Below are positions 1,096-18,255 of a DNA stretch of 32,110 nucleotides, one piece after another; positions within the stretch are counted from its first letter, which is position 1, and each line of letters begins with the position of its first letter. This DNA comes from Candidatus Microgenomates bacterium (GTDB lineage: Bacteria; Patescibacteriota; JACPGU01). The position numbers were made by a program, and so were the translations under genes. Under the pieces are notes generated by a model that saw only the letters and a list, made by a program, of their open reading frames with translations, was not told where the DNA came from and searched no databases. Location: positions 1 to 32,110 of the forward strand of contig JACPGU010000001.1 of the NCBI GenBank assembly GCA_016188915.1, written 5' to 3'.

Positions 1096-2196
1096 ATGGC
1101 TAAAGAACTTTTGACTTTGGATCAGCTCAAAATTGAAACGGACAAAAACATTGAAACCCTCAAAAATAGAGGGGTTTTTGAGCAGATTGAAAAATTAGAA
1201 AAAAAATCTAGAGAGCCTGATTTTTGGCAAGATTCTAAAACTGCCGGAAGTTTAATGCAAAAATTGGGAGATTTGCAGAAAGAAGTAAGGGAGTGGCAAG
1301 AATTACAAGAAAATATAAAATCAACCACCGCCTCTGGCGGGGTCCCGCCAACAGTAGATTCGAATAGGGGAGACGGGAGAAATCAAGAAAACAAGGAATT
1401 AAGATTACACGAATTGAATAAAATTTTTACCCAATTGGAGGCCAAGATGTATCTGGCAGGAAAATACGACACGGGCAATGCCGTTTTGTCAATCCACGCC
1501 GGAACGGGAGGGGTGGACGCAATGGATTGGGCTGAAATGCTACTTCGCATGTATTCGCGTTATGCCGAAAGGCAGGGTTGGCGGACAGAGGTTTTGCACT
1601 TATCAGCAGGGGAGGAGGCGGGCATCAAAAGTGCTTCGGTGGAAATCTTCGGGCGTTATGTTTATGGATTTTTGAAGCAAGAGCAGGGGACGCATCGGTT
1701 GGTGCGCAAATCTCCCTTTAATGCCAAAGGCTCTCGCGAGACCTCTTTCGCCTTGGTTGAAGTGACGCCGGTGGTTGAAGAAATGGGAGAGATTATCATT
1801 GATGAAAAAGATTTGAGAGTGGACACATTTCATGCTTCCGGCAAGGGTGGACAAAAAGTCAATGTGACGGATTCGGCAGTGAGGATTACTCATCTGCCGA
1901 CAGGAATAGTTGCCTCTTGCCAGTCAGAAAGATCGCAACATCAAAACAAAGAACACGCGATGAAGGTTTTGCGATCAAGGCTTATTTTGCTTGAAGAAAC
2001 CAAATCCGAAGCCGATCTGAAAAAAGAAAAAGGAGAATTGGGTCTAGCAACTTGGGGTTCGCAAATTCGTTCGTATGTATTGCAGCCCTATCAGATGGTC
2101 AAAGACCACCGCACGAATTTTGAAACTTCTGATGTGGAGGAGGTGTTAGATGGCGGGATAGAAGAATTCATTGACGAAAGCGTCAAAAAGGCCTAA
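1096..2196 (+). CDS. prfB: Peptide chain release factor 2
   Basis: SPF stop-codon recognition motif (LVRKSPFN), GGQ motif (GKGGQKVN) and WGSQIRSYV. Continuous frame with no internal frameshift. Confidence 0.97.
1324..1378 (+). repeat. 55-bp palindromic REP-like element inserted in frame in prfB
   Basis: ACCACCGCC...GGCGGGGTCCCGCC...GACGGGA. The first 28 nt match the reverse complement of 3024-3078 at 24/28 positions. Confidence 0.75.
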
Positions 2197-2313
2197 ACCG
2201 CTTGCTAAAACTTATCCACTTGCCATTTGGAGCTATTTACAATATGGTATTATGGTATGGGTAGAAAAAATCATTCCAGTAATTTGTCTTAATTCGAACA
2301 ATTCGCGCTTCCA

Positions 2314-3023: not shown

Positions 3024-3078
3024 TCCCGCCACCTATTTTTTACTAAATAGTAGGCGGGACCCCGTCGAAGGCGGTGGT
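3024..3078 (-). repeat. 55-bp palindromic REP-like element (same family as the copy in prfB)
   Basis: TCCCGCC...GGCGGGA hairpin followed by CCCCGTCGAAGGCGGTGGT; inverted relative to 1324-1378. Confidence 0.75.
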
Positions 3079-3091
3079 AAATCCTGAGGGT

Positions 3092-3997
3092 ATGCTTTCT
3101 TACAGAATCTTCAAAAATGCTATCATCGGACTCTGGCGCAACAAATGGCTCACTGTCGCCACAGTTATTGTGATGACCTTGGCTTTGTTCACGGTGGGAC
3201 TTTTTATCATCATTAATATTTTAGTCAATTCCACGGTGGATACGGTCAAATCACGCATTGACCTGGAGGTCTATTTCAAAAAAGAGGTAACAGCCGATAC
3301 TATCATGGCAGCGCAGGATGATTTGAAAAAATTGTCAGTAGTCAAAAATACTCGCTACATTTCGCCGGAAGAAGCGCTCAATATTTTTCGTGAACAGAAC
3401 AAAAATGATCCGGGGTTACTTTCCGCTATTTCCGAAGAAGAAAACCCACTTCCCGCCAGTCTAAAAATTGATCTTTATCGGGCCGAAGACCTGGACCAAT
3501 TGAGTAAATTGTTCCACGAAGGAAAATATGATGAGATTACCGATAGCACGAGCTATGAAAACAATAAATTAATTGTTCAAAAATTAATCAATATCGGCAA
3601 TTACGTCAAAAAAGGGGGAGTGGCGCTGTCTCTGATATTCCTTTTAACGACCCTTATCGTGGTTTTCAATACCATCAGAATCAATCTTTACACCAGGAAA
3701 GAGGAAATAGAGATTATGCGCCTGGTGGGAGCGACTAATTGGTATATCCGCTGGCCTTTTATTTTGGAAGGTTCTTTTTATGGGCTGATTTCTGTCCTGC
3801 TTTCTTCGCTGGTTCTTTTTGTGGGTTTGAAATTGACTGCACCCTATTTAGAATCTTACTTGCAGGAATTTAGCGCCAATTTTTTCAACTACATTACTCT
3901 TTATAGCCTACAGATAATTGGTTTGCAGATTGTTATCAGTATCGCTATCGGCATTATCAGCTCAACTCTAGCAATCAGGAGATATTTGAAAGTATAG
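3092..3997 (+). CDS. ftsX: Cell division permease FtsX
   Basis: Four TM helices and the motif NTIRINLYTRKEEIEIMRLVGATNWYIRWPF. ATG at 3092 (GAGGG upstream) is preferred to the GTG at 3074, which lies inside the repeat element. Confidence 0.93.
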   Translation: MLSYRIFKNAIIGLWRNKWLTVATVIVMTLALFTVGLFIIINILVNSTVDTVKSRIDLEVYFKKEVTADTIMAAQDDLKKLSVVKNTRYISPEEALNIFREQNKNDPGLLSAISEEENPLPASLKIDLYRAEDLDQLSKLFHEGKYDEITDSTSYENNKLIVQKLINIGNYVKKGGVALSLIFLLTTLIVVFNTIRINLYTRKEEIEIMRLVGATNWYIRWPFILEGSFYGLISVLLSSLVLFVGLKLTAPYLESYLQEFSANFFNYITLYSLQIIGLQIVISIAIGIISSTLAIRRYLKV

Positions 3998-12602: not shown

Positions 12603-13703
12603 ATGGATTCCCAGGAAGTTTTTTATAGATTAGGCTTTGCTTTGATTCCCCAGATTGGCGCTGGCCGTGGACGCAAACTTTTGAATTTTTTCGGTTCGGC
12701 CCAAAAAGCTTGGAAGGCCGATTACGTCGACTTGCTCCAAGCGGGGCTAGAGGATGTTGCCGCCAAAGAATTAGCAGCAGGGAGAAAGCTGTTAGATCTG
12801 GGTAAAAAGATGACAGAAGTAAAAAGTTTTGGTATTCGTTTGGTTTTGCTGGAAGATGAAGAATACCCAAAGCTTTTACGGGAGATTTACAATCCTCCCT
12901 TGCTTCTTTTTGTGCGTGGACAAATTATCGATGCCGATCATTACGCGGTAGCAATAGTAGGGTCGCGTCGTTTTAGCGAGTATGGTCGACAAGCGACAGC
13001 CGATATTGTTTCACATTTGGCCGAAAACCAGGTGACGGTGGTTTCTGGATTGGCCTTGGGGATAGACAGCTTTGCCCACCAGACAGTTTTGAAAAATCCC
13101 AATGCCAGAACAATAGGGGTTTTAGGCTGTGGCATTGATGATTTGACCATATACCCTTCTGAAAATAAGAATTTGGTTCATCGTATCATAGAAGGTAGAG
13201 GAGCTATCGTTTCTGAATATCCTCCAGGCACCCCACCTCTAAAGCAGCACTTTCCGGCCAGAAATCGTATTGTTTCGGGATTGTCCCAGGGAGTAGTGGT
13301 AGTGGAAGCATCTAGCACTTCCGGCTCGCTAATTACCGCGCGGCATGCATTAGAGCAGGGGAGAGATGTTTTTGCCGTGCCGGGCAATATCTATCACAAA
13401 AATGCCGCAGGACCGAATAGTTTGATAAAATTAGGCGCTAAATTGGTGGAAAAGCCGGAAGATATTTTGGAAGAATTAGACTTGCGACAATTATCAAATC
13501 GAGTGGCAGTACAAAAAATGATACCAGAAAATCTTGACGAGCAAAAAATTTTAAGTTTTTTAGAAATAGAACAATTGCATATTGACAGATTGGTAGAATT
13601 ATCAAAACTTTCCATCAATGATCTCAATCCGCTTTTGGTGACGATGGAGATGAAGGGGCTGGTTCGCGATATGGGAGGAGGAAATTATATCGCGGTGAGA
13701 TAA
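12603..13703 (+). CDS. dprA: DNA-processing protein DprA
   Basis: AIVGSR, VSGLALGID, FPARNRIVSGLS and GSLITA motifs; C-terminal winged helix. Confidence 0.96.
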   Translation: MDSQEVFYRLGFALIPQIGAGRGRKLLNFFGSAQKAWKADYVDLLQAGLEDVAAKELAAGRKLLDLGKKMTEVKSFGIRLVLLEDEEYPKLLREIYNPPLLLFVRGQIIDADHYAVAIVGSRRFSEYGRQATADIVSHLAENQVTVVSGLALGIDSFAHQTVLKNPNARTIGVLGCGIDDLTIYPSENKNLVHRIIEGRGAIVSEYPPGTPPLKQHFPARNRIVSGLSQGVVVVEASSTSGSLITARHALEQGRDVFAVPGNIYHKNAAGPNSLIKLGAKLVEKPEDILEELDLRQLSNRVAVQKMIPENLDEQKILSFLEIEQLHIDRLVELSKLSINDLNPLLVTMEMKGLVRDMGGGNYIAVR

Positions 13704-13727
13704 GAATTTCCCAGTTTCCGGAAACCG

Positions 13728-13763
13728 GACAGCAAAAAGCCCCCGGGGAGGGGACTTTCTTGT
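13728..13763 (-). terminator. Terminator downstream of the RT gene; direct-repeat copy 1
   Basis: Minus strand AAGTCCCCT-CCCC-GGGGGCTT-TTTG; 35/36 identical to 15331-15366. Confidence 0.75.
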
Positions 13764-13810
13764 TGGAGGATGTCTATGATTCCAGTAGTGAGATAGCCCA
13801 CGGAGCGATT

Positions 13811-15046
13811 TCACTGGGGTTTTGTATCGGAAAGGGGGATGGCCTTCAAATAATAAGGCTTAGCGCCAGTCATTTTCAGGAAATTAGCCATTGGTCGGCG
13901 CAATCTAGACGGCAAAAGTTTTGGCGGGAAAATACGACAGATGTGCGCCGTAATTCCCATGGCCGAACGAGACAGCTTTTCGTCGCCGGGATTCTGATAA
14001 GCGCTATGCAAAATCGCCCGAAAACGATCCTGATCCTTTCTTCGTAGGGTAATCTGTCGCCCTTCCAGCATCCTGACCGTTTGTATTGGCGGCCAATCAA
14101 TTTTCACGCGAAGACTCAAGCCCAACATTCTCGGCGAGCATTTATTTAAACGATAGTAGTGGATCTTTCCTCTGTTCACCGAGAAGGTATTGGGTTTTGC
14201 CTCTATCGCCGTCACAACTTTCTCTCGCACTTTTTTCGGGATAGGCTGATTGGACGAGATAATAATGTCGTCAGCGTAGATAGTGATAATCGGATGCTTG
14301 ATGCCATTATTTTCAAGAGCGAGATGGATTTTTTTGATTAGTCCGTCAGCATAGGTGGCGTAGACAAAAAAATCCGGAGAAGTAGGGGCGCCCTTGGGAA
14401 GAGAGTCTTTGTCGGTAATCAAGTCCACTACGGCAACAGTAAATTCATAGAGCAAATAAGTCAGATGACGATTGAGCTTGTACTGGAGAAAGTATCGGTG
14501 AAATCGACCACGAAGAAATTCTGCTTCGACATCTACGATAGATTGTCGATGCAAGAAGTGATTGCTGATGCTGGCATTAAATCGACCGCAGAGACTTTTG
14601 GAAAAAAGCTTACTTTTCTGAAACATGCTCTCCCGCCAAAGAATGCGCATCAAGGCAGGGAAGCATATTGTTATCAGAAAGTTTCTTTTTGTTGATCCGA
14701 AAGCGTTTTTCAGGTCTAGCTTGAAAAAGTATTCAGAGTCAGCGTGCGGATGGACTGCAGTCAAGATTGATTTGTTTCGCAAAAATCCATGAAAGCGATA
14801 GTAATGGTGGGTATTTGGATCAAATTTCTGAAAGACAAAATTGTCCATAAGTCTCAAGCCTATTATCCTGTGAAGCCGTTCCTGCACTACTTTCAGAATG
14901 GGAGTGGGTACCGAAATAGTATGCTTGCCCAATTTGTGGCTTCGGTAACGATCTTCGAGCAAAAGGATCTCAATGTATTCTTCTGGCGTAATATCCAGGA
15001 CTCGGCAAAGTAGTCGTTCTCCTTCAAGCAAACCTCTCTGGTCCAT
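13811..15046 (-). CDS. Reverse transcriptase, retron-like but divergent
   Basis: ISVPTPILKVVQERL, HGFLRNKSILTAVHPH (region X-like), LDLKNAFGS (first catalytic Asp and steric-gate F), LPKGAPTSP, YADD, VNRGK and MLGL (region Y-like); SD AAGGTGG upstream. No fused maturase, Cas1 or nuclease domain is visible. Confidence 0.9.
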   Translation of the reverse strand: MDQRGLLEGERLLCRVLDITPEEYIEILLLEDRYRSHKLGKHTISVPTPILKVVQERLHRIIGLRLMDNFVFQKFDPNTHHYYRFHGFLRNKSILTAVHPHADSEYFFKLDLKNAFGSTKRNFLITICFPALMRILWRESMFQKSKLFSKSLCGRFNASISNHFLHRQSIVDVEAEFLRGRFHRYFLQYKLNRHLTYLLYEFTVAVVDLITDKDSLPKGAPTSPDFFVYATYADGLIKKIHLALENNGIKHPIITIYADDIIISSNQPIPKKVREKVVTAIEAKPNTFSVNRGKIHYYRLNKCSPRMLGLSLRVKIDWPPIQTVRMLEGRQITLRRKDQDRFRAILHSAYQNPGDEKLSRSAMGITAHICRIFPPKLLPSRLRRPMANFLKMTGAKPYYLKAIPLSDTKPQ

Positions 15047-15104
15047 CTAGCCACCACCACCTTTCTGCCGGGATTTTTTTGAGCGAGATTTTAATATGCG
15101 AAAA

Positions 15105-15291
15105 GAAAAAAAAGGAGGGGGCAAGCAAACGCACCTTTTTTGAAACCACCCGCTACCCGCGCGAGCGGAAAGTTCCGGGGGAAATGCCGGTCCTTATAAA
15201 ATCCGTCGCAGGAAGCCCGCGACGACCCCTTTGGGGCTGGGGAGACAAATAGCACTCATCCCTTTTTCTGAGTTCTTGTCGCCCCCTCCAT
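15105..15291 (-). ncRNA. RT-associated structured ncRNA (msr/msd-like)
   Basis: Terminal inverted repeat GGAGGGGGC/GCCCCCUCC (15281-15289 / 15114-15122) encloses four stem-loops with minus-strand G-U pairs. It starts ~7 nt after a -10 box, ends in a U tract, and lies directly upstream of the RT gene. Confidence 0.75.
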
Positions 15292-15296
15292 AGAGT

Positions 15297-15325
15297 ATTT
15301 TACAAAAAAGACGATAAAATAGCAA
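15297..15325 (-). promoter_or_regulatory. sigma70 promoter of the RT-associated ncRNA
   Basis: Minus strand TTGCTA-17 bp-TAAAAT; +1 would fall at the 5' arm of the closing stem. Confidence 0.7.
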
Positions 15326-15330
15326 CTTCA

Positions 15331-15366
15331 GACAGCAAAAAGCCCCCGAGGAGGGGACTTTCTTGT
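15331..15366 (-). terminator. Terminator after the small ORFs; direct-repeat copy 2
   Basis: Minus strand AAGTCCCCT-CCTC-GGGGGCTT-TTTG; 35/36 identical to 13728-13763. Confidence 0.75.
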
Positions 15367-15381
15367 CAGGGGGGGTCGGTT

Positions 15382-15585
15382 TTACCGCTTGATTCTTTTG
15401 ATTATTGGAGAGCCAACGTGGGCCATTCTCCTGCTGTTGCATTTGGGGCAAGGGGCCTTGGTAAAAGGGATATTGAAGCCGAGGAACCGTCTTAAGACAA
15501 AATAGGTACCTTGGCAGGCGGTACATTTCGTCTGTTGCCGAGTAAGTGGCGGAGTGAATTGTACCAGGGGATTTTTTGGTATCAT
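15382..15585 (-). CDS. Small basic zinc-ribbon protein (hypothetical)
   Basis: CTAC...CPKC (two CxxC), SD GAGGTG upstream, followed by a terminator. Confidence 0.65.
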   Translation of the reverse strand: MIPKNPLVQFTPPLTRQQTKCTACQGTYFVLRRFLGFNIPFTKAPCPKCNSRRMAHVGSPIIKRIKR

Positions 15586-15598
15586 GGCTTCACCTCTT

Positions 15599-15835
15599 TC
15601 ATTGATCTAAGAATTTTCGAATAGTCTTTTCTGCGGTGGCCAAGTCATCTCCTGGTTTGATCAGCTTTCTCAGACCATTGGGCAGTGGCCCTCCTCTTTT
15701 GAATCGACCATTCCATAATGCCTGAGCGCGGTCAAGGCCGGTAGTTTTCATACTAATGTCGACCTCTATTTTTTTACCGCGCCGACATATTTTCTGCCAA
15801 AAGTCAAGGAACATCTTGGCGACTTTTTTTCCCAT
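15599..15835 (-). CDS. Small basic hypothetical protein
   Basis: 78 aa, SD GAGGTGG, downstream of a sigma70 promoter; 13 nt from the zinc-ribbon ORF. Confidence 0.6.
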   Translation of the reverse strand: MGKKVAKMFLDFWQKICRRGKKIEVDISMKTTGLDRAQALWNGRFKRGGPLPNGLRKLIKPGDDLATAEKTIRKFLDQ

Positions 15836-15880
15836 AGTCCACCTCGGAGTGTTTTTTTGAGCTGTTAAGGAAGCGTCTAT

Positions 15881-15909
15881 ATCTTAGCTCTTGCCACAAC
15901 TTTTTTCAA
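15881..15909 (-). promoter_or_regulatory. sigma70 promoter of the two small ORFs
   Basis: Minus strand TTGAAA-17 bp-TAAGAT. Confidence 0.6.
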
Positions 15910-15925
15910 TAGGAAGCTTGATTTT

Positions 15926-15955
15926 TTGACAAAGGGCGGGAGGATAGTGTAAAGT
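15926..15955 (+). promoter_or_regulatory. topA promoter (probably leaderless)
   Basis: TTGACA-18 bp-TAAAGT, 8 nt before the ATG. Confidence 0.55.
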
Positions 15956-15963
15956 GGGCGAGT

Positions 15964-18255
15964 ATGAAAAATCTGGTTATCGTAGAATCGCCGGCGAAGG
16001 CGAAAACTATTGAGAAAATGTTAGGACGGGGCTTTTTAGTTCGCGCCTCTTTTGGTCATGTCCGCGATTTGCCAAAAAGTAAACTGGGCGTGGATACTGA
16101 ACACGATTTTGAACCGCAATACTTAATTCCCGCCAAAGCCAAAAAAGTAATCAAGGAGCTGAAAGAGCAAGCGGAAAAATCTGACACAGTCTATTTGGCC
16201 ACCGACTTGGACCGTGAAGGAGAGGCGATCTCTTGGCATTTGAGCCAAGCGTTAGGACTTGGAAATCACAAATCACAAATCACAAATCACAAACAATCTT
16301 TAAAAACTAAATCAAAAACTAAATCCCAAACAAAAGAAGGTTCAGATATACAAGTTCATCGCATAGTTTTCAATCAGATTACCGAAAAAGCAGTAAAGGA
16401 AGCGGTGGCCAGCCCCAGAGAACTGGACATGAATTTGGTCAACGCCCAGCAGGCCAGGCGCGTCTTGGATCGTTTGGTGGGCTACAAGCTCTCACCTTTC
16501 CTATGGAAAAAGGTAAAAAAAGGCCTGTCTGCCGGTCGCGTGCAATCGGTGGCGGTCCGATTAATTGTAGAACGGGAAAGAGCGATAGGAGCTTTCAAAG
16601 CGGAGGAGTATTGGGAATTGACAGCGGAGCTAAAAAAATCCCAAACAAATTCTAATGACCAAAATTCAAATGGGGAGAAATTTACAGCTAAACTTCTCAA
16701 AAAGGATGATAAAGAATTAAAGGTTACCAGTAAAGAACAAGCAGACGAGATATTGCAAGATTTGGAGGGGGCGGAATATATAGTAGGAGAGGTGAGACGG
16801 AAAGAAAAAAATCGCAATCCTTCGCCACCTTTTACCACCTCCACGCTTCAACAAGAATCGGCTCGAAAGCTCGGGTTCTCGGCCAAAAAAACCATGATGT
16901 TGGCGCAGAGACTTTACGAAGGTATGGATTTGGACGCGCTCGGCCACAAGGGCTTGATTACCTATATGCGTACCGATTCCCTCAATCTCGCCCCGGAAGC
17001 AATAGAAGCCATACGGGGGAAAATCGCCCAAGATTTCGGCAAAAATTACATTCCCGAAAAACCTAATTTTTATAAAAACAAATCCAAGGGCGCGCAGGAA
17101 GCCCACGAAGCGATTCGTCCCTCCCATCCGGAACTCTCGCCTGATGAAGTGGAAAAATTTTTAGAAAAAGACGAACACCGGCTTTACTCTTTAATTTGGA
17201 AAAGAGCGTTGGCTTCCCAAATGGTGCCGGCAATTATGGACAGTACTTCGGTAGACATAGGCGCGGATAAGCGCGGATATTTATTTAGGGCGACAGGTTC
17301 AGTCATCAAATTTGACGGGTTCATTCGTGTCTATATAGAAGATATTGATGAAGACGAAAAGATAGCTGACGAGGATCGCGAGGGCTATCTGCCACCATTA
17401 GAACAAAATGAAAAACTGGATTTGGAAGAATTGCTTCCTGAACAAAAATTCACTCAACCGCCACCTCGTTTTACCGAAGCATCGTTGGTTAAAGAGTTGG
17501 AAAAAAACGAGATTGGTCGGCCTTCCACCTACGCGCCGACTCTTTCCACTATTCAAGAAAGAGGCTATGTCCAATTGGAAGAAAAAAAGTTCAAACCGCA
17601 AGAAATCGGCTTAATCGTCAATGATGTCTTGGTGGAGCATTTTCCGCAGGTAGTGGATGTCGCTTTTACTTCTCATGTAGAGGAGGAATTTGATGATATC
17701 GCCGAAGGCAAGATGGAGTGGCACGAGATGATCAGGGAATTTTGGACGCCTTTTGAAAAGAACTTGAAAGAAAAAGAAGTGGAAGTGAAAAAAGAGGATA
17801 TTATCGGTGACGAGGCGACCGATATTCCCTGTCCCAAATGTGGCAAAATGCTGGCGATCAAATTCGGCCGGTTCGGTAAATTCTTGGCCTGTACCGGATT
17901 CCCCGAATGCAAACATACTCAACCTTTGAATGAAACTAAGGATGAAGAAAAGCAACTGGAAGCGGTTAATCACGGTAATTGCGAGAAATGCGGACACGAG
18001 TTCGTCATCAAAGAGGGGCGTTTTGGTAAATTCATTGCTTGTTCCAATTATCCGGAATGCAAAAATATCAAAAATCTAGACAACAAAATCGATATGAAAT
18101 GCCCGAAGTGTAGCGAGGGCGATGTGGTGGTGAAGATGACCAAGAGACGCAAAAGATTTTGGGGGTGCAATAAATATCCTGATTGCGACTGGGCGAGCTG
18201 GGTAAATCCGCAGAAAAACGCCGATGAAGCGCAAAATAGCACAGAAAAAGAATAA
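15964..18255 (+). CDS. topA: DNA topoisomerase I (type IA) with three C4 zinc ribbons
   Basis: IVESPAKAK TOPRIM, ATDLDREGE, SAGRVQS, catalytic ITYMRTDS, and three CxxC...C...C modules. Confidence 0.97.
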   Translation: MKNLVIVESPAKAKTIEKMLGRGFLVRASFGHVRDLPKSKLGVDTEHDFEPQYLIPAKAKKVIKELKEQAEKSDTVYLATDLDREGEAISWHLSQALGLGNHKSQITNHKQSLKTKSKTKSQTKEGSDIQVHRIVFNQITEKAVKEAVASPRELDMNLVNAQQARRVLDRLVGYKLSPFLWKKVKKGLSAGRVQSVAVRLIVERERAIGAFKAEEYWELTAELKKSQTNSNDQNSNGEKFTAKLLKKDDKELKVTSKEQADEILQDLEGAEYIVGEVRRKEKNRNPSPPFTTSTLQQESARKLGFSAKKTMMLAQRLYEGMDLDALGHKGLITYMRTDSLNLAPEAIEAIRGKIAQDFGKNYIPEKPNFYKNKSKGAQEAHEAIRPSHPELSPDEVEKFLEKDEHRLYSLIWKRALASQMVPAIMDSTSVDIGADKRGYLFRATGSVIKFDGFIRVYIEDIDEDEKIADEDREGYLPPLEQNEKLDLEELLPEQKFTQPPPRFTEASLVKELEKNEIGRPSTYAPTLSTIQERGYVQLEEKKFKPQEIGLIVNDVLVEHFPQVVDVAFTSHVEEEFDDIAEGKMEWHEMIREFWTPFEKNLKEKEVEVKKEDIIGDEATDIPCPKCGKMLAIKFGRFGKFLACTGFPECKHTQPLNETKDEEKQLEAVNHGNCEKCGHEFVIKEGRFGKFIACSNYPECKNIKNLDNKIDMKCPKCSEGDVVVKMTKRRKRFWGCNKYPDCDWASWVNPQKNADEAQNSTEKE
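16263..16331 (+). repeat. AAATCAC heptamer repeat tract in frame in topA
   Basis: AAATCAC x4 (16263-16290) plus degenerate units; a second related tract lies at ~16636-16671. Confidence 0.8.

Follow-up and report, generated by a model that had tools for sequence, protein, structure and literature searches.

What kind of system is a reverse transcriptase (RT) gene that follows a structured noncoding RNA and has no other gene beside it? Current work treats retrons as immune systems of three parts that resemble toxin-antitoxin pairs, and such a locus lacks one of the parts. The case studied here is a cassette at positions 13,728 to 15,366 of a 32,110-nucleotide (nt) stretch of contig JACPGU010000001.1 (assembly GCA_016188915.1, Candidatus Microgenomates bacterium); we call the whole stretch the window. 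An earlier note, made from the letters alone, had described a promoter, an RNA of about 176 nt closed by a perfect 9-bp stem, an RT of 411 amino acids (aa) with a YADD motif and a terminator, all on the minus strand, and had proposed an acquired and possibly undescribed system in a genome like those of the candidate phyla radiation (CPR). The host is a groundwater bacterium, and its genome is indeed of CPR size (769 kb in 4 contigs, 94.7% complete). We put at roughly 60% the reading that the cassette is a stand-alone two-part retron-like module, a divergent member of a CPR family in which a structured upstream RNA is paired with a retron-type RT. Coordinates are collected in Table 1.

The RT is retron-type by profile and by predicted fold. 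Its frame is intact over 411 aa, with a stop codon immediately before the ATG, the catalytic D111 and YADD are present, and H101 and G309 are kept in the alignment. Pfam gives RVT_1 (32.5 bits against a cut-off of 29.6) and nothing else, and the AlphaFold model (predicted local distance difference test, pLDDT, 85.8) consists of one RT fold with a helical insert, so that no domain, toxic or other, is fused to it, as had been claimed. The best 25 of the 32 PADLOC families that match are all retron RT models, with weak scores (RT_X 63 bits over part of the length, III-A 59, VI 56), and the NCBIfam retron models, at 47-50 bits, stay far below their cut-offs of 235-600. A profile built from the RT and its 38 best relatives gave 162 bits against the solved RT of Ec86, 135 for Ec67 and 125 for Kva2; the same profile gave 51-55 bits for group II RTs, 30 for the defence-associated RT (DRT) DRT1 and about 24-25 for DRT2 and DRT9. 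In the Foldseek listing from the PDB, every match given at ranks 1-18 (17 rows) is a retron RT; group II, diversity-generating retroelement (DGR), DRT2, abortive infection (Abi) Abi-P2 and DRT9 RTs follow. At about 60 aa, the predicted insert separates the DLKNAF and LPKGAPTSP motifs (motifs 3 and 4), and the relatives have one at this place too, of variable length.

Three other assignments were rejected. The earlier note had mentioned DRT2 and DRT9 as two-component units, but the RT resembles neither by profile (about 24-25 bits) or fold (ranks 28 and 48), and membership in their unknown group (UG) of RTs was dropped. A group II intron was set aside because Rfam gave no match in 13000-16200, only 36 nt separate the RT stop codon from the repeat described below, and the RT is closer to retron RTs. 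We found no template and variable repeat pair in 13400-15700, and a DGR was likewise rejected.

Within the retron RTs, the protein falls in none of the 13 typed families, a placement that rests on hidden Markov model scores. The nine nearest representatives also belong to no single type, because they match many types at near-equal scores of 90-150 bits. The idea of an undescribed system thus stands insofar as the RT is in no described retron type, but not as a new kind of RT system, since the RT is retron-type. Nor did it prove to lie inside a described type whose effector was lost here; its relatives, too, are without partner genes (see below).

Relatives of the RT are distant and form a clade. 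A word-index search of 5.8 billion proteins returned only the RT itself as a relative (1 of 2307 candidates), and a HMMER scan of 1.84 billion representatives gave 292 matches at E up to 1e-3, the best at 31% identity (E 7e-20). The clade profile (A3), which includes the window RT, gives it 373 bits; among 401 genomes from the phylum, 14 match this profile at E up to 1e-10. In a tree of 104 rows, all of them best hits of the window RT, a selection that itself favours clustering and tells against taking the grouping at face value, the RT lies inside a 43-row clade (Shimodaira-Hasegawa-like approximate likelihood ratio test, SH-aLRT, 89), on a long branch. All seven rows of known origin in this clade, the window included, are CPR. 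The clade also holds every unnamed best hit and every row known to be CPR except L036, L065 and L082, and its sister group of 57 rows is almost entirely non-CPR. Candidatus Saccharimonadota is the commonest phylum of the nearest cluster in the protein atlas, and 24 relatives on viral contigs score 75-159 bits on the clade profile, below the CPR members; a phage origin was set aside. A metagenome scan added 80 loci, 64 of them with an RT of at least 175 bits, which fall into 49 groups at 60% identity.

The upstream regions of these relatives point to a shared RNA. Of 48 regions, 10 contain a long-range stem that at most 2 of 40 shuffles reach, and in eight of the 10 a distance of 23-63 nt separates the end of its 3' arm from the start of the RT. 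Among 71 clade loci, 42 have a hairpin with the pattern G-Y-N-G-N-CAG, 3-nt loop, CUG-N-C-N-R-C, which shows four pair types at one of its positions. A covariance model (R1), trained on seven sequences of one subgroup, matches 25 of 83 sources at E < 1e-3, 19 of them outside the training set, and those matches that were checked are found immediately before the RT, on the same strand. In an alignment of 19 matches fitted to R1, which favours the structure, 94.1% of cells paired (80.2% in shuffles) and 21 of 31 pairs varied on both sides; none of 500 shuffles came up to this, and slid controls stopped at 10 or below. MAFFT with RNAalifold on mixed subgroups recovered the central hairpin alone. 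The common layout has a closing stem, P1, made of a G-run and a C-run, and within it a second stem, P2, that encloses two or three hairpins; a tail UUGUUCUUUUAAAA then precedes the ribosome-binding site. Ahead of the RNA, boxes like TTGACA and TATAAT stand in family members where the window has its promoter candidate, as judged by eye. Rfam 15 has no match in nine representative clade loci. By this covariation, the clade carries a conserved upstream RNA that is absent from Rfam 15, and the earlier note's suggestion to look for one in homologous loci was borne out.

Some members depart from this layout. In L128, L131, L135 and L153 a GC-rich hairpin follows the RNA body, with a U-run next in L128, L131 and L135, terminator-like by eye; in L128 and L131 a TTGACA box comes after the terminator, as if RNA and RT were separate transcription units (also by eye). 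Two CAG-NNN-CUG hairpins some 300 nt apart, which could be a duplicated RNA gene, are present in L047/L198, at about 339 and 35 nt upstream of the RT, and in L154, at about 302 and 26 nt.

The window RNA resembles this family in outline. Both the RNA of 176 nt and its perfect 9-bp stem were found as described before; a G-U and an A-U pair lengthen the stem to 11 bp, and its 3' end lies 68 nt before the RT start. The fold of 15105-15296 on the minus strand reaches -78.9 kcal/mol (z = -2.75), which is matched by 3 of 200 shuffles, and has five short hairpins; the G+C content of the RNA is 58.5%, compared with 42% for the open reading frames (ORFs) of the host genome. The candidate priming G at 15280 pairs with a U in the minimum-energy fold. 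A promoter-like site is present where the sigma-70 promoter had been proposed, and its -10 element ends 7 nt ahead of the closing stem; it is weak alone, because the 2.6-kb region holds six sites of this quality when 3.6 +/- 1.9 are expected. Promoter placement, a closing stem of G-run and C-run, a hairpin with a 3-nt loop and a U-rich tail are all laid out as in the family, and the hairpin at 15203-15225 begins 64 nt into the RNA, the position of the CAG-NNN-CUG hairpin in the clade (about 60 in the model). R1 run with its filters off matches best, within 3.5 kb, at 15086-15158 on the minus strand (9.8 bits, rough E 0.015), which is the expected position and strand. A search of 13000-16200 against Rfam 15 gave nothing up to an E of 10. 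Each of these RNA features is modest singly, and the case therefore rests on their combination and on the relatives. Homology of the window RNA to the clade RNA is likely.

The cassette also reads as a discrete unit of DNA. A direct repeat of 47 nt (87% identity between copies, spacing 1603 nt) flanks it on both sides; the repeat occurs twice in the genome, only here, and each copy carries one of the two terminator hairpins, the one behind the RT being the terminator that had been predicted. In G001, the same-family genome with the most similar dprA (67%), the order is an mfd-like gene (labelled from its translation), dprA, the 67-aa gene, the 78-aa gene and topA, with no RT and with a single terminator that is homologous and aligns to both repeat copies. 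The cassette is thus an indel at the terminator of a native gene, since G001 has the same locus without it and with one terminator, and the description of the cassette as acquired is supported to that extent. The simpler account of the indel is an insertion that duplicated the terminator; loss in G001 by recombination between the repeats would give the same picture. None of five same-family genomes has the RT. In G003 and G004 dprA adjoins topA, and in G005 dprA is present and topA is absent from the stretch fetched. The two flanking genes were named correctly by the earlier note, as Pfam shows, but the insertion is not directly between them, because two native small genes intervene. These genes, the 47-nt repeat and two ORFs that overlap the RNA had been overlooked.

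Foreign composition of the RT was tried and rejected: G+C (0.446), G+C at third codon positions (0.483) and codon usage (distance at the 76th percentile of host ORFs) are host-like, which fits long residence or a CPR donor. Contigs from one or two other studies contain pieces 100% identical to 14660-14810 and 14982-15193 and also match 15270-15419, a piece that crosses the repeat copy A junction, except for an additional G behind 15368; their coverage of the junctions is on that side only, not on the dprA side. The arrangement is therefore not an assembly artefact of one sample. Joints across the cassette with sides of 26 nt probably come from other organisms and were not used. Between repeat copy B and the dprA stop codon, at 13708-13729, lies a near-perfect palindrome of 18-20 nt, CCGGTTTCCGGAAACTGG-like, which scans as terminator-like and is absent from the G001 spacer; the dprA-side spacer of G001 (L010, G001:C23, about 3062-3172) is filled with GCTTATTT-like short repeats.

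Table 1. Positions of the cassette features and of the genes on either side, in window coordinates.
Feature	Position	Strand	Remarks
dprA	12603-13703	plus	Pfam DNA_processg_A, 260.9 bits; flank at repeat copy B, convergent with cassette
Direct repeat copy B	13728-13774	n/a	Holds terminator hairpin after RT
Terminator-like hairpin 3' of RT	13753-13740	minus	Terminator scan
Retron-type RT (predicted), 411 aa	13811-15046	minus	YADD, residues 257-260, at nt 14267-14278
Ribosome-binding candidate	15051-15062	minus	Purine-rich GGTGG repeats, 4 nt before RT start codon; read from the sequence
U-rich tail	15086-15113	minus	After P1 3' arm; U8CUUUU run, then A-rich; resembles family UUGUUCUUUUAAAA tail
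Structured RNA (predicted), 176 nt	15289-15114	minus	Closed by P1; five short hairpins inside
Closing stem P1	15281-15289 with 15114-15122	minus	9 bp, perfect
Hairpin, 9-10 bp, 3-nt loop	15203-15225	minus	64 nt past P1 start; scans as terminator-like
Candidate priming G	15280	minus	Directly 3' of the 9-bp 5' arm; proposed by analogy with retrons
Sigma-70-like promoter candidate	15325-15297	minus	TTGCTA-17-TAAAAT; 9/12 consensus matches
Direct repeat copy A	15331-15377	n/a	Holds terminator hairpin of native 67-aa gene
Terminator-like hairpin ahead of promoter	15356-15343	minus	Terminator scan
Native 67-aa gene	15382-15585	minus	Two CxxC motifs; outside cassette
Native 78-aa gene	15599-15835	minus	No known family; outside cassette
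topA	15964-18255	plus	Pfam Topoisom_bac, 425.8 bits; flank beyond two small genes

No partner gene was found inside the cassette, in line with what had been noted before, and we asked whether its relatives keep one nearby. Among 82 neighbour ORFs at six independent CPR loci, blastp gave no cross-locus match. Among 721 neighbour ORFs of the 64 metagenome members (31 with more than 1.5 kb of flank upstream and 34 downstream), no neighbour family occurs in more than four of the 49 groups. The commonest, at four groups, is pyrE/pyrF-type pyrimidine housekeeping by Pfam; the other recurrent neighbours are pheS/pheT-, rfbA- and murF-like by reading, and none of the recurrent families matches a PADLOC retron effector. 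The phosphoribosyltransferase (PRTase) effector of type III-A retrons was considered and rejected, the recurring PRTase-like neighbours being of pyrE/pyrF type; the one in L136 matches OMPdecase at 128.7 bits and no PADLOC retron effector. Because no neighbour recurs across the 49 groups, the absence of an effector is, at blastp sensitivity, a property of the clade and not a local loss.

Two neighbourhoods may be recorded beside this result. In L136, L158, L176, L187 and L200 (four of the 49 groups) the RT stands beside pyrE/pyrF-type genes, often together with pheS/pheT-like ones, which is probably shared synteny among related genomes. In L151 (2882-3508, plus strand) the clade RT is followed by a pair of small genes that resemble, by eye, an AbrB/MazE-type antitoxin and a Doc/Fic-type toxin.

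A protein partner could still be hidden, either as a small toxic peptide inside the RNA or as the 67-aa and 78-aa genes; we consider this very unlikely. Type VI retrons provide the precedent of a small toxin concealed in a closed RNA (bioRxiv 10.1101/2025.10.22.683967), and RT_VI is among the best PADLOC matches, at 56 bits. Two ORFs overlap the window RNA on its strand, a GTG-start frame of 54 aa with a hydrophobic end (15091-15255) and an ATG-start frame of 21 aa (15194-15259). Yet the family RNA changes by compensation and not as a reading frame, for which reason the 54-aa ORF is probably spurious; this ORF would moreover fill the whole 176-nt RNA and leave no space for a separate template, and no helix-turn-helix (HTH) partner is present. 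The small-gene pair is itself an indel between dprA and topA, because it is missing in G003 and G004; among the same-family genomes examined it occurs only in the window genome and in G001. However, the G001 copies (46% identical for the 67-aa protein, 41% for the 78-aa protein) occur without an RT, the genes end at their own terminator, and neither protein has a PADLOC match. Pfam gives the 67-aa protein only a weak DnaJ_CXXCXGXG match below the cut-off, and no relatives of its gene were found in metagenome contigs.

Several observations weigh against the reading of a two-part retron-like module, and those on the RNA come first. The closing stem alone is only borderline, because a long-range stem as strong or stronger turns up in 6 of 100 dinucleotide shuffles of the 400-nt region that precedes the RT. 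The marks of 2'-OH priming are not clearly present. In validated retrons the priming G is reported to belong to a conserved AGC that adjoins the 5' repeat (Simon et al. 2019, PMC6868368), and the msd (the templating part of the RNA) of retrons forms one long hairpin or two, with 10-50 bp (Mestre et al. 2020, PMC7736814). Here the context at 15280 is GCGAC, the window RNA contains no long msd-type hairpin (its longest local stem has 9-10 bp), and in the family RNA the 5' arm of P1 is followed by A-rich bases and not by G. The CAG/CUG hairpin of the clade lacks its counterpart in the window, whose RNA does not have that apex. R1 found no match to the window RNA with default filters; the match obtained with filters off spans the 3' arm and tail only, and the central hairpin scores 0.5 bits. 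Among the sequencing runs listed, none is on record as RNA, and the metagenome members of the clade have no assigned host origin.

These points lend some weight to a different account of the RNA, in which it is merely a leader, an attenuator or a separate small RNA, and the RT uses other templates or none, as Abi and DRT RTs do. Both the hairpin at 15225-15203 with the AUUUUAU behind it and the closing stem with its U8 look like terminators, and in the subgroup of L128, L131 and L135 the RNA ends in a clear terminator hairpin, with TTGACA following in L128 and L131; the missing AGC context and msd-type hairpin agree with this. The RNA may be a transcript of its own for the same reasons, the stem with its U-tract and the terminator of that subgroup. 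Against the account, the RT is far closer to retron RTs than to Abi or DRT RTs, and an RNA with covariation that always lies directly upstream of the RT and on its strand has the look of a cognate partner. We regard a mere leader as quite unlikely.

The remaining points concern the RT. The position of the NAXXH motif reads AVHPH, with H101 kept and N and A not (the N is missing in 2 of 16 validated retrons; PMC6868368); that of VTG reads MLG, with G309 kept, where relatives have ITG or VTG, P0013 also having MLG; and LPQG reads LPKG, although this Q is nearly invariant among relatives. The RT is a singleton with a branch length of 1.49 and may on that account be decaying. The cassette might then be a relic, a former retron-like element that is now inactive and drifting in the lineage, as the altered motifs, the lost hairpin apex of the RNA, the long branch and the want of any relative above 31% identity among 1.84 billion representatives would suggest. 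Such a relic would nevertheless not be expected to keep a 411-aa frame with its catalytic residues and a fold predicted at pLDDT 85.8, nor an RNA whose fold is still better than those of shuffles. As far as the pieces seen go, the copies from other samples are identical, and a genome of 769 kb would seldom retain 1.6 kb of junk. Decay is accordingly an unlikely explanation in our estimate, and a retron-like module remains the reading we prefer.

How does such a module compare with known systems? Stand-alone cassettes of msr, msd and RT, and the term orphan retrons, have been published, and the role of orphan retrons was raised as an open question in the discussion of the same paper (Mestre et al. 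2020, PMC7736814). Examples without an effector are Retron-Eco5 (Ec107) and branches of retron RT clades 2 and 11 (PMC7736814; Simon et al. 2019, PMC6868368). Ec107 is intergenic, with no mobile element nearby, and replaces a 34-bp palindromic sequence (PMC7736814; PMC6868368); in Escherichia coli it adjoins pyrE (PMC7736814). Like these, the cassette consists of an RNA gene and an RT only, without an associated protein, and where Ec107 sits at a palindrome, the cassette sits at a terminator palindrome duplicated on both sides. The differences are that orphan retrons have hosts among Gammaproteobacteria or Actinobacteria, whereas this host is CPR; that the window RT has the extra predicted helical insert between motifs 3 and 4; and that the window RNA is predicted to form several short hairpins instead of a long msd stem. 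The RT_Ec107-like PADLOC model is not among the best 25 of the 32 families for the window RT, and reaches only about 80-100 bits on the relatives tested.

The typed tripartite retrons share with the cassette the YADD motif, an RNA directly upstream and closing inverted repeats, and Eco2/Ec67, Eco1/Ec86, Eco7/Ec78, Ec83 and Eco8 are the best fold and profile matches of its RT. In contrast to them, the cassette has neither an effector gene nor a fused domain, keeps NAXXH and VTG only in part, and scores far below the family cut-offs. In type VI (Retron-Vpa2) a closed, apparently noncoding RNA upstream of the RT hides the effector, and RT_VI is one of the top weak matches here; however, the Vpa2 RNA has about 470 nt, with an arm for a small protein, and is accompanied by an HTH partner, whereas the window RNA has 176 nt, no HTH gene accompanies it, and covariation is seen in the family RNA. 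DRT2 and DRT9 are alike in gene content, RNA and RT only, but their RT is of the other (UG) group. Their existence shows that a cDNA product can be the effector itself. In the literature on retrons in CPR groups, with supplementary tables outside its scope, our search found no description of the clade or its RNA. Stand-alone retron cassettes are thus already known, and the cassette appears, from sequence comparison, to be a divergent addition to them from the CPR, with a clade and an RNA that we did not find described.

According to a review, DGRs make up about 80% of CPR RTs. The window genome has a second RT, of 340 aa (L100, G000:C1:185499-189098, at 1291-2313, minus strand), whose best solved relative is the DGR RT 8ub7 (148 bits); a PemK/MazF-like gene lies on the same strand at 663-1004 of L100, about 290 nt from it.

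If the retron-like reading is right, the module might work as follows. The cassette's own promoter would start transcription at the closing stem; stem and U-tract may free much of the RNA as a discrete species, and read-through would provide the RT mRNA. By analogy with retrons, the RT would bind the RNA, probably at the hairpin 64 nt in, and copy part of it into a small cDNA like multicopy single-stranded DNA (msDNA). Downstream, the product may serve phage sensing through a factor encoded elsewhere, or the RT-RNA-cDNA complex may itself be active. A broader proposal, which is possible and which we hold only tentatively, joins these lines: a widespread CPR family of true two-part retron-like systems, with at least 49 RT groups, a conserved RNA of about 150-190 nt that Rfam 15 lacks and no protein effector, whose RT-RNA-cDNA complex would work as an immune device in the manner of DRT2 and DRT9 or would have a domesticated housekeeping function. 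The window would then hold a fast-evolving offshoot whose RT (region Y, MLG) changed in step with the apex of its RNA hairpin.

For the biology of these organisms, a clade of partnerless RT and RNA modules in genomes below 1 Mb provides a defined test set for the orphan-retron question, with an RNA supported by covariation, compact RTs and a 1.6-kb unit that could be expressed as it stands. Should the modules make no cDNA, they would represent a retron-type RT put to another use; should they make cDNA, they may be small new tools for DNA production in cells.

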